Position numbers and translations under genes: made by a program. A stretch of 32,000 bases of DNA from Opitutus sp. GAS368 (GTDB lineage Bacteria > Verrucomicrobiota > Verrucomicrobiia > Opitutales > Opitutaceae), in the NCBI RefSeq assembly GCF_900104925.1, contig NZ_LT629735.1, forward strand, positions 372,291 through 404,290, given 5' to 3'. Under the pieces are notes generated by a model. The model saw only the letters and a list, made by a program, of their open reading frames with translations. It was not told the DNA's origin and searched no databases. Of this stretch, positions 10,263 through 11,748 are shown one piece after another (positions within the stretch are counted from its first letter, which is position 1; each line of letters begins with the position of its first letter).

Positions 10263-10338
10263 TACACCAAGGTCGCCAAGACCGCGAAGCAGATCCTGCG
10301 AGGGGAAATATCTCTGCGTTCTTTGCGGCCTTCGTGTA
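10263..10338. repeat. Word-array palindrome, period 9 (element E)
   Basis: Left array: three 9-nt units each ending in aag (tacaccaag, gtcgccaag, accgcgaag). Right array: ctctgcgtt, ctttgcggc, cttcgtgta, which are imperfect reverse complements in mirror order. It sits between the convergent 3' ends of the EIIA-like gene and waaA. A separate perfect 15-bp palindrome, taacgtaatacgtta, at 10359-10373 overlaps the waaA stop codon. Confidence 0.75.
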
Positions 10339-10370: not shown

Positions 10371-11684
10371 TTACAAATTATCGGTGCCGAGCTGCGCGCG
10401 GATGACGGCCAGTGTGCGCTCCGTCGCGCCGCGGTTGGCTTCGCTCCATTCGCGCGCCGCGGCCGCCAGTTTTTCCCGTTGGGCGGAGTCCTGCAGCAAT
10501 TCCACCGCCACGCTGATCAGCTCGCTGTGCGTCTCCACCTTGCGCACCGCGCCGGCCTCGGTGAGCGAGCGGATGATGTCGCGGAAATTCGTCATGCGCG
10601 GCCCGTGCAGCACCGGCTGGCCGAGGATCGCCGCCTCGACCGGCGTCTGGCCGCCCTCGTGCGGCGCCAGGCTCTTGCCCGTGAACACCAGGTCGGCCAG
10701 CTGCGTGAATTTCCGCAGCTCGCCCGTCGTGTCGCCGACGGCGACATCAACCGTCCCCAAGGCCGCGCCCTCGGAGCGGAAATGAAACTTCAACCCGCTC
10801 TTCTCCAGCAGGCCGCGCAGCTCCTCGCGTCGCTCGGCATGTCGCGGCACCAGCAGGAGTGACACCTTGAGCCCCTTCTCCCGCGCGGACTTGAGCGCCG
10901 TGACCAGCGCCACTTCTTCGCCGGCCCAGGTTGAGGAACCAAGCAGCACGAGCCCGGCGCCGAGACCGAGTTCACGCCTCAGCGCCGCCTTGTCCGCCTC
11001 GGCCAGCAGCGGAATGCTGACATCGAGCTTGAGATTGCCGGTGGTCTGCAACCGCTCCGGCGGAAACCCGAGCGCTTTGAACCGCTGCTCGTCGCGCTTC
11101 GCGGCGCACAGCACCCGGGTGATGCCGACAGCCAGCGGCCGCATGAGCGCGCGGAAGCGCAGCGAGCGCTTGAAGCTGCGGTCCGACATGCGGGCGTTGA
11201 TGCTGATGACCGGCACGCGATGCGCCTGCGCCTGCGCCACATGCTCCGGCCAGCGCTCGCCCTCCATCAGGATGGCCAGGTCGGGCGCGACCTTCCGCCA
11301 CGCCGCCGCGCTGAAGGCCCACCAATCGAGCGGGAAGTAGCCGATGCCCGCCGTCAGCGCGCCGTATTTCTCCTTCGCCAGCCGGTAACCGGTGCTGGTC
11401 GTGGTGGTCAGGTAAACCTCGACGCCGGCCTCGCGTTTGAACGACTCCAGCAACGGGGAAACAGCGAGCACCTCGCCCACGCTGACGGCCTGCAGCCAGA
11501 TGCGTTTCACCCCGGCCGCCTTGGCCGGCAGCGGCGGCACATCACCGAAGCGGTGCCAGAAACCCTCGGCATAGCCGCCCCGCCGCCGCATCCGCCACAG
11601 GTAATAGGGCGACGCCAGCAGCAGCAGCGGGAGAAACAGAATTCTATAGATCCAGATCAAGGCGGGGTAACCACTAATGGACAC
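10371..11684 (-). CDS. waaA: 3-deoxy-D-manno-octulosonic acid (Kdo) transferase
   Basis: N-terminal TM anchor then RIWLQAVSVGEV, matching the E. coli WaaA motif region, within a GT30-like layout of 437 aa. The start is GTG at 11684, inside repeat element A. Confidence 0.9.
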   Translation of the reverse strand: MSISGYPALIWIYRILFLPLLLLASPYYLWRMRRRGGYAEGFWHRFGDVPPLPAKAAGVKRIWLQAVSVGEVLAVSPLLESFKREAGVEVYLTTTTSTGYRLAKEKYGALTAGIGYFPLDWWAFSAAAWRKVAPDLAILMEGERWPEHVAQAQAHRVPVISINARMSDRSFKRSLRFRALMRPLAVGITRVLCAAKRDEQRFKALGFPPERLQTTGNLKLDVSIPLLAEADKAALRRELGLGAGLVLLGSSTWAGEEVALVTALKSAREKGLKVSLLLVPRHAERREELRGLLEKSGLKFHFRSEGAALGTVDVAVGDTTGELRKFTQLADLVFTGKSLAPHEGGQTPVEAAILGQPVLHGPRMTNFRDIIRSLTEAGAVRKVETHSELISVAVELLQDSAQREKLAAAAREWSEANRGATERTLAVIRAQLGTDNL

Positions 11685-11728
11685 TAAGAGACACTAATGA
11701 TTAGTGAGGAATTAGTGTAGATTAGTGG
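11671..11728. repeat. AT-rich word-array palindrome, period ~10 (element A): 3x CACTAA(T/G) then 3x ATTAGTG
   Basis: ccactaat-gg-acactaag-aga-cactaat-g-attagtg-aggaa-ttagtgt-ag-attagtgg. There are three 6-8 bp mirror segments: 11671-78/11721-28, 11681-87/11712-18 and 11692-98/11700-06. It overlaps the waaA start codon and lies 21 nt from the 3' end of the upstream gene. Confidence 0.9.
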
Positions 11729-11748
11729 TTAACTCCGGCTGCTTGGCT

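Follow-up and report, generated by a model that had tools for sequence, protein, structure and literature searches.

Word-array palindromes between co-transcribed genes of Opitutus sp. GAS368 as gene-less relatives of cassettes carrying small PF13366 and PF05635 genes

Hairpins built from short tandem words have been known for decades, as short tandemly repeated repetitive (STRR) sequences, as the heptamers of Xanthomonas and as the intervening sequences (IVSs) of rRNA genes, without a unifying account. In Xanthomonas, 70–75 convergent pairs of GGGAATC heptamer arrays have been described, which are capable of forming stem-loops and have no known function; they are mostly transcribed, and both their location and their type persist from species to species (Rehm et al. 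2015, PMC4692102). In the 23S rRNA IVS of Coxiella, two to three tandem GACAGAT heptamers stand ahead of an S23p (PF05635) open reading frame, the terminal repeats form a 28-bp stem that is cut by RNase III, the number of heptamers varies among strains, and the authors regard the insert as a selfish element (Warrier et al. 2016, PMC4990558). A dispersed repeat has also been tied to a small nuclease in the NTS/Ssn system, where the gene of a GIY-YIG single-strand nuclease lies amid the repeat that it recognises, with hundreds of intergenic copies, and which is widespread in bacteria (Chenal et al. 2025, PMC11893778). Here we analyse four palindromes in a window of 32,000 nucleotides (the whole stretch of DNA under study; Opitutus sp. 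GAS368, contig NZ_LT629735.1, positions 372,291 to 404,290 of the forward strand): element 1 (10265..10336), element 2 (11668..11731), element 3 (18443..18527) and element 4 (20202..20288), all listed without a strand and in window coordinates. In this genome (G000; other G-numbers denote relatives) such hairpins fall into two or more families, and each family is linked to a small gene (PF13366 or PF05635). Hairpin-bounded cassettes and their gene-less copies fill gaps between co-transcribed genes and are barely described in print.

Elements 1, 2 and 4 are gene-less members of the GxxExxY family (family A), and element 3 is a gene-less member of the PF05635 family. The loops of some family-A elements, about 385–395 nt long, hold open reading frames of 124–127 residues that encode GxxExxY proteins (TIGR04256/PF13366 PDDEXK_3, E 1e-36 to 1e-41). 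A six-frame search found 11 such genes in the genome, 10 of them tightly bracketed by inverted C[AG]Cnnnn-type arrays, and the ten cassettes use ten different words: CACGACG, CACAGAG, CACGAAA, CACGGAA, CACTAAT, AACGGAG, CGCGGAT, CACCAAG/CGCAAAG, CACGAAT and CACGGAT. Seven of these are the seven commonest words among the gene-less elements. The word of element 2 arms the CACTAAT cassette gene at genome position 3846595-3846939, that of element 4 the CGCGGAT-armed gene at 1041406-1041747, and the word type of element 1 is found in the CACCAAG/CGCAAAG arms of the gene at 114823-115170. No GxxExxY gene lies in the loops of elements 1, 2 and 4 (22, 1 and 35 nt), which are thus gene-less miniatures and not full cassettes. 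The sole GxxExxY gene without arms (3852657-3852998) has a long C-terminal extension.

The second family is recognised by its cargo, PF05635 (23S_rRNA_IVP), for which the genome yields six matches: five lie in the loops of inverted arrays, with the words TAAGCnn, GAGGACr, ACTCCGC, CTGAAnnn and GCCAAAn, and the sixth scores below the family cut-off. The TAAGCnn-armed gene (genome 4088994-4089308; TAAGCnn x5 + nnGCTTA x4) has the arms of element 3, which is itself made of units in the 7–8-nt class and shares its word with this resident gene. At least seven further heptamer or octamer words occur in the genome beside that of element 3. The PF05635 gene with GAGGACr arms (G000:C1:3548548-3548862) has an in-frame TAG, and this cassette is probably decaying. 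The words of the four elements are therefore not unrelated, contrary to what the original prediction had supposed: all four match the arms of resident cassettes, and elements 1, 2 and 4 share a C[AG]C...G[CT]G skeleton. The prediction had also proposed a common generating mechanism or function, of which a common origin of the shared, non-random architecture stands and the premise of unrelated sequence falls.

Direct reading of the window bears out the shared layout of repeat, loop and inverted repeat in all four elements, with element 1 in a decayed state and the other three clean. Element 1 (period 9) has the left words CACCAAG (10265-71), CGCCAAG (10274-80) and CGCGAAG (10283-89) and the right words CTCTGCG (10312-18), CTTTGCG (10321-27) and CTTCGTG (10330-36), with one to two mismatches per word pair, and lies between the convergent genes for PTS-EIIA (plus strand, stop 10157) and kdtA/waaA (minus strand, stop 10371). 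Element 2, (CACTAAT)x3 + (ATTAGTG)x3, reads CACTAAT (11672-78), CACTAAG (11682-88) and CACTAAT (11692-98) followed by ATTAGTG at 11700-06, 11711-17 and 11721-27, with a period of 10–11 nt and a stem that is lengthened by outer TAAC/GTTA pairing; it is flanked by the deoxyhypusine-synthase (DHS) gene (minus strand, stop 11749) and by the start of kdtA about 10 nt away. Element 3, with a loop of 28 nt, is a heptamer palindrome of four TAAGCnn words, one of them degenerate (TAAGCTC 18451-57, TAAGCCG 18458-64, AAAGCTT 18465-71, TAAGCAG 18472-78; period 7), and three nnGCTTA words (CAGCTTA 18507-13, AAGCTTA 18514-20, TCGCTTA 18521-27). The HIT gene terminates within this element, its stop codon being the TAA (18458-18460) of the second TAAGC word, and the PhoH gene begins about 40 nt downstream. 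The gene upstream of the PF05635 cassette with the same arms likewise stops in the first TAAGC word (genome 4088935), and where a word contains TAA or TGA, its repetition every 7, 8 or 10 nt puts a stop codon into each of the three frames. Element 4 (period 9–10) has CGCGGAT at 20202-08 and 20211-17, CGCAGAT at 20221-27 and ATCCGCG at 20263-69, 20273-79 and 20282-88; it begins 17 nt past the stop of ybeY (20184) and ends 84 nt short of the start of the DUF502 gene (20372).

All four elements sit between protein-coding genes, none of them in 23S rRNA, and each folds into a segmented hairpin on both strands, with z-scores against dinucleotide shuffles of -2.6 to -7.3 (-4.5/-3.5 for element 1, -7.3/-6.9 for element 2, -2.6/-3.0 for element 3 and -4.8/-5.5 for element 4). 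The lower GC content noted in the original prediction is confirmed: elements 2–4 range from 0.36 to 0.59, against 0.657 for the genome, and are thus AT-richer. A search of the whole window against Rfam at gathering thresholds gave no match. In an independent public assembly, element 4 matches at every base and is therefore not an assembly artefact. An exact-protein look-up with DUF502 returned two contigs, one with identical spacer DNA and the other with the same 188-nt spacing between ybeY and DUF502; the look-up with DHS returned no match. In the same spacer, the 40 nt before the DUF502 start (window 20330-20371; AAAAAAATCAGTGGCGTCCnGGTTCATCTGTGnTTCACTGCG) are conserved in five species while the remaining spacer turns over, and this block is a candidate promoter or 5' untranslated region element.

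The genome, a single contig of 4.15 Mb with 65.7% GC, was scanned in two ways. A broad scan for words repeated at a 5–14-nt period with reverse-complement repeats within 45 nt, controlled by order-3 Markov simulations, returned 72 loci for 5-mers with at least 2+2 copies and at least five in total (5–8 simulated), 31 loci for 5-mers with at least six in total (0 simulated) and 28 loci for 6-mers with at least five in total (0 simulated). A strict pipeline (at least 3+3 seven-mers, at most one mismatch, loop up to 700 nt) gave 114 elements in the genome and 1 in a simulated genome, so that the architecture occurs well beyond chance. The period is 10 nt in 77 of the 114 strict elements, and the loop is at most 150 nt long in 95; the C[AG]C arm comes first in 81 of these 95 short-loop elements and the G[CT]G arm in none. 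The commonest words are CACGGAT (23), CACTAAT (23), CGCGGAT (13), CACGAAT (8), CACGGAA (6), CACGAAA (5) and CACAGAG (3). Family A is described as C[AG]Cnnnn words at a period of 9–10 nt, often in a TTAAC...GTTAA frame, and elements 1, 2 and 4 each have at least three such inverted words at an 8–11-nt period with the CRC arm first. The frame was seen in 24/74, 18/52 and 11/28 arms and, being palindromic, is indistinguishable from an extension of the stem. Read from the outside in, the arms show linker consensuses specific to each family (e.g. CRCGGAT-TA-...-GAA), and because these are common to the arms, the copies descend from perfect palindromes.

The regular period and polarity could be read as arrays of duplex-DNA sites for a phased binding protein, either nucleoid- or partition-like or a regulator, which in family A would meet one word at each helical turn. 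The 10-nt period, a CRC/GYG triplet conserved at every word, the strict convergent polarity, and words that are fixed while linkers are free to vary would all suit such a protein. More than 15 words would, however, need as many proteins, or one protein that reads CRC alone, for which positions 4–7 would need no identity within an element; the same architecture also occurs at periods of 7, 8, 9 and 10 nt, and the cargo genes are the sole candidate proteins linked to the arrays. We consider this reading very unlikely.

Several observations concern the loops and the surroundings of these elements. Identical IS110-type transposase genes (331 aa) lie in the loop between CACGGAT/ATCCGTG arms at G000:C1:549336-550733 and 2488030-2489446, so that the hairpin loops seem to serve as targets for insertion, in the way that REPs do for IS110-family elements. 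Onion-like nests, with CACTAAT arms around CACGGAT arms around CAGGAGG/CAGAG arms, occur at 882551-882797, 4014337-4014592 and 1630618-1631170, and one 550-nt nest has at least four layers of arms; at G000:C1:3045575-3045749, arms of the words CACTAAT and CACGGAT alternate (A5' B5' A3' B3') and are not nested. Many CACGGAT elements have loops of 100–120 nt with a second conserved palindrome, GTCATYCTGAGCGnAGCGAAGRATCC...GGATYCTTCGCTnCGCTCAGRATGAC (2579900-2580070, 3365284-3365448, 3563171-3563334 and others), which also replaces element 3 at the HIT-PhoH junction of G010. The word-array architecture adjoins the DHS gene in other phyla and groups as well (L086, L082, L079, L068, L074, L076), with the words CGAGAAG in Gemmatimonadales, GACAGTT in Thermoanaerobaculia, TTAACAG in Hymenobacter, ATAGCAn in another Verrucomicrobiae genome and CACGAAGAG at a period of 9–10 nt in an unclassified bacterium.

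The position relative to genes is strongly biased. All 15 armed cassettes point in the same direction as their upstream gene (chance probability 2^-15), and the cassette genes begin 55–160 nt, mostly 55–80 nt, past the upstream stop, for example between atpG and atpD. A gap of this size fits an arm but no promoter, and the cassette gene must therefore rely on read-through transcription from the host. Of the gene-less copies, 57 lie in co-directional spacers (41–44 expected), 2 in convergent ones (11–12 expected) and 9 in divergent ones (13–15 expected; chi-square p 2e-4 to 2e-3). In co-directional spacers they start at a median of 13 nt past the upstream stop codon, in agreement with the tie to gene boundaries that was originally noted. 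The original prediction also named segmented hairpin terminators or attenuators as candidates, and stable hairpins (z down to -7.3), sites just past stop codons and the place of element 1 between convergent genes are what Rho-independent terminators would show. A downstream T-tract, however, follows only 8 of the 57 gene-less copies, convergent spacers are depleted and co-directional strings enriched (atpG-atpD included), the stems are AT-richer than the genome, and the cassette genes depend on read-through. We reject termination on the scarcity of T-tracts and the type of spacer, and regard it as extremely unlikely.

Comparison among relatives shows that in sister species the palindromes at orthologous junctions differ. 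At the DHS-kdtA junction of 18 species of the genus, five (including G000) have CACTAAT and five CACAGAG, one species each has CACAAAAAA and CGCAAAGGA, two have longer or decayed word repeats, and in one relative the exact site of element 2 is taken by a PF05635 gene that GTCGAAG heptamer arms enclose; nothing recognisable was found in the three most distant of the 18 species (G004, G005, G017). Element 2 has thus been kept in four other species and is interrupted in one of these: in G015 (L020) an unrelated stretch of about 150 nt, also a palindrome, has been inserted into the centre of the CACTAAT palindrome. The four intact CACTAAT orthologues differ pairwise by 4.0% in the words and by 52.9% in linkers and loop (p 2e-25), and the words of this gene-less element are therefore strongly constrained or homogenised. 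The last candidate of the original prediction, pure replication slippage, is rejected as well, since identical words that are conserved across species stand beside linkers that vary within one arm. Element 3 is shared only with G006, which has 2+2 words and a different loop, and element 4 was not found at the ybeY-DUF502 junction of the four relatives with a readable spacer (G010, G012, G002 and G014), where other repeats or none are present and where G014 lacks a palindrome.

A further comparison is with G037, whose flanks are 86–89% identical to those of G000. All seven junctions compared have a palindrome of another word or family in the two genomes and none is empty; in one of them G037 has a gene-less heptamer palindrome where G000 has a GxxExxY cassette. 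The boundaries of replacement are sharp beside the genes (G000:C1:1030568-1030766, 1041347-1041799, 144615-144718 and 3043156-3043383). G037, whose assembly is 100% complete, has no PF13366 match even at E 0.01. Over 372 kb it nevertheless has eight family-A elements with perfect words, a density close to that of G000. Since the words are perfect there in the absence of PF13366, their constraint needs no resident GxxExxY gene.

These replacements speak for a host-beneficial punctuation of operons, in which a junction hairpin is required for mRNA stability, insulation of cistrons or translational control (cf. REP/BIME in E. coli) and any word-array palindrome suffices, so that position is kept while sequence turns over. 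Besides the 7/7 replacements, the palindrome at DHS-kdtA in most of the 18 species with differing words, the strong purifying constraint on words independent of GxxExxY, the median start 13 nt past the stop codon with the next start close by, and the closeness of element 2 to the start of kdtA (about 10 nt), which might let it cover the ribosome-binding site, all suit this explanation. Against it, the palindrome is missing at DHS-kdtA in the three most distant species and at ybeY-DUF502 in G014, no strand bias of G.U pairs is seen, a simple hairpin needs no identical words within an arm, and arms of this kind also enclose small genes of selfish appearance and occur nested in each other. Operon punctuation is in our view rather unlikely.

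Genes and words travel together across the genus. PF13366 genes are present in 39 of 41 genomes, and the 80 loci that were fetched lie mostly at a few conserved junctions, such as nadE-hemL in 13 genomes. The cassette words at nadE-hemL vary by species (CACTAAT, CGCTAAT, CACTGAT), as they do at another junction (CACGAAA, CACGGAA, CGCGAAT). In a tree of 87 proteins the clades follow the word rather than the junction: ctx01 proteins with CACGGAA arms are sister to the ctx05 CACGGAA proteins (support 89/91) and not to the other ctx01 proteins, and the proteins at junction ctx02 fall into three clades far apart in the tree, each associated with a different word. It follows that gene and arms are inherited and exchanged together.

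Such co-travel would also be expected from a partnership like REP/RAYT or NTS/Ssn, in which the protein of each GxxExxY lineage would act as a sequence- or structure-specific nuclease on hairpin or single-stranded DNA bearing the lineage's word, and by cutting there would promote copying or gene conversion both of its own cassette and, acting in trans, of the gene-less arrays that share this word. The protein itself lends colour to this. PF13366 was entered as 'Unknown' in a survey of PD-(D/E)XK proteins (PMC3424549), and no solved relative turned up when the PDB was searched by sequence with GxxExxY. An AlphaFold2 model (pLDDT 93) has its best match in Cas4 SSO0001 (E 4e-5, query TM-score 0.59), followed by lambda-exonuclease and RecE. 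Residues D72 and K84 are invariant among the paralogues and E32 of the GxxExxY motif is kept, so that the catalytic D...(D/E)xK and GxxExxY motifs are both conserved; the modelled fold is Cas4-like, as in a DNA nuclease, and an active DNA nuclease is plausible on the model. The near one-to-one match between the ten cassette words and those of the gene-less elements, protein clades that track word and not junction, the strict polarity (81 to 0), family-specific linker consensuses that point to master copies, and the Ssn precedent of small nucleases framed by the repeats they cut (PMC11893778) add to the case.

Weighed against this partnership, G037 keeps its perfect-word elements without PF13366, by which a strict dependence on a resident GxxExxY gene is rejected, and G009 has a single cassette (CGCAAAG) yet contains CACAGAG and CGCGGAT elements. 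The same words are found in distant protein clades, and among the ctx03 proteins, whose words vary between CACAGAG and CACGGAG, no protein column showed a residue change consistent with the word group. Strand transfer is beyond a PD-(D/E)XK nuclease alone, an identical architecture surrounds the gene of a non-enzymatic four-helix bundle in the heptamer family, and no movement was observed. The partnership is possible but, on balance, unlikely. More doubtful still is its sharper form, in which the variable 4-nt core of C[AG]Cnnnn would be a specificity code read by the cognate GxxExxY paralogue, which would seed and homogenise its own arrays. If true, the GxxExxY proteins would be a numerous group of very small Cas4-like nucleases whose sequence specificity for hairpin or single-stranded DNA can evolve. 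They would add a third partnership of repeat and nuclease to REP/RAYT and NTS/Ssn and might be a source of programmable single-strand cutters.

The account that we favour, and hold to be somewhat more probable than its negation, is that the elements are IVS-like foldback cassettes and their gene-less miniatures at junctions between co-transcribed genes, with a stem that is processed or insulated, and that they are selfish or near-neutral and turn over by replacement. A full cassette is a small gene that lacks space for a promoter, set behind the stop codon of a host gene and closed by two inverted arrays of three to five copies of a lineage-specific word. The cargo of family A is GxxExxY (PF13366), a putative minimal Cas4/RecB-like PD-(D/E)XK nuclease, and that of the family with a 7–8-nt period is a PF05635 gene, the '23S rRNA intervening-sequence protein', a four-helix bundle. 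The two arrays would pair into one long segmented stem, which in a read-through transcript may behave like the stem of the 23S rRNA IVS, that is, as a substrate of RNase III, a double-strand-specific RNase. The insert would then be cut out of the polycistronic RNA or insulated within it, making an insertion between co-transcribed genes tolerable, and the elements could persist and spread while junctions swap palindromes over time. Repetition of the word would arise from slippage-type expansion and contraction together with homogenisation within an element, and not from many different binding proteins.

Behind this account stand several observations: the four elements are kin to resident cassettes, the architecture is in excess across the genome, cassettes point the same way as their host genes, gene-less copies prefer co-directional spacers, words are strongly conserved whereas linkers and loops drift freely, and protein and word travel together. 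Several points weigh against it. Cutting of the stems by RNase III is proposed by analogy with the 23S rRNA IVS. The predicted folds give no signature of an RNA strand, with 151 G.U pairs in sense and 179 in antisense orientation, nor do the G.U-compatible transition mismatches between arms (67 sense, 65 antisense), which fall in the freely drifting linkers. In-register compensation at position 2 of the CRCGGAT words was not detected (16/24 vs 28/48, p 0.6, with only eight informative elements). The family-A elements of G037 show that the nuclease is not needed for their upkeep, and the 7/7 palindrome swaps that never leave a junction empty are explained no less well by a hairpin that the host requires there. 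The words CACAGAG, CGCAAAG and CACGAAG recur in distant protein clades. Finally, neither a target-site duplication nor a transposase was found, nor a clean empty site in genomes that are one per species and too diverged, so that mobility is inferred from phylogeny only.

These results offer testable handles: gene and word move as a unit, the cassette gene relies on read-through, and gene-less copies are strongly constrained even without the nuclease gene. They bear on the role of very widespread gene families and on why operon junctions in many phyla hold hairpins built from repeats. To the prediction that no named class has this layout, the answer is divided, as heptamer arrays are in print (PMC4692102, PMC4990558), whereas we found no description of the family with a period of about 10 nt or of its link to GxxExxY; a literature search with the words CACTAAT/ATTAGTG gave primer matches only and nothing relevant.

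Among the known systems, MITEs, miniature transposable elements with inverted repeats, resemble the present elements in being short, intergenic, gene-less inverted-repeat copies of a longer gene-carrying element. Here, however, only the words are conserved and not a whole terminal repeat, and no conserved internal sequence was found. REP/REPIN-RAYT systems likewise comprise dispersed intergenic palindrome families with a cognate gene flanked by its own repeats, families that match gene paralogues, and elements targeted by IS110-type insertion sequences. The genes flanked here are PF13366 or PF05635, a PD-(D/E)XK nuclease or a four-helix bundle and not an HUH Y1 transposase; the arms are tandem word arrays and not a single imperfect palindrome with a GTAG head, loops are not shared, and a relative without the gene (G037) keeps the repeats. 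NTS/Ssn also has a small nuclease gene associated with, and surrounded by, a dispersed repeat, but the nuclease here belongs to another superfamily, the repeats are inverted tandem arrays, and nuclease and repeat are linked by sequence only. REP/RAYT and NTS/Ssn are therefore functional analogies from different families.

Closer in form are the GGGAATC arrays of Xanthomonas and the related STRR sequences and TAACTGA heptamers of cyanobacteria and Beggiatoaceae (PMC4679880), which are intergenic tandem heptamers as found here; element 3, a convergent inverted pair of such arrays, conforms to this type, and so do the arrays of the further heptamer or octamer words. They differ from our elements in having one dominant word, read as G-quadruplex-forming, and no cargo gene has been noticed, while this genome has many words at periods of 7–10 nt and a kinship with PF05635 and GxxExxY cassettes. 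The 23S rRNA IVSs of Coxiella burnetii and Leptospira share with our cassettes a small PF05635 gene between inverted repeats with a tandem-heptamer arm and an insert transcribed within a host RNA. They lie in rRNA, whereas the cassettes here lie between protein-coding genes with many words per genome, and three of the four window elements belong to family A, with its period of about 10 nt and another cargo gene. For the heptamer-armed cassettes described here, the Coxiella IVS is the printed counterpart.

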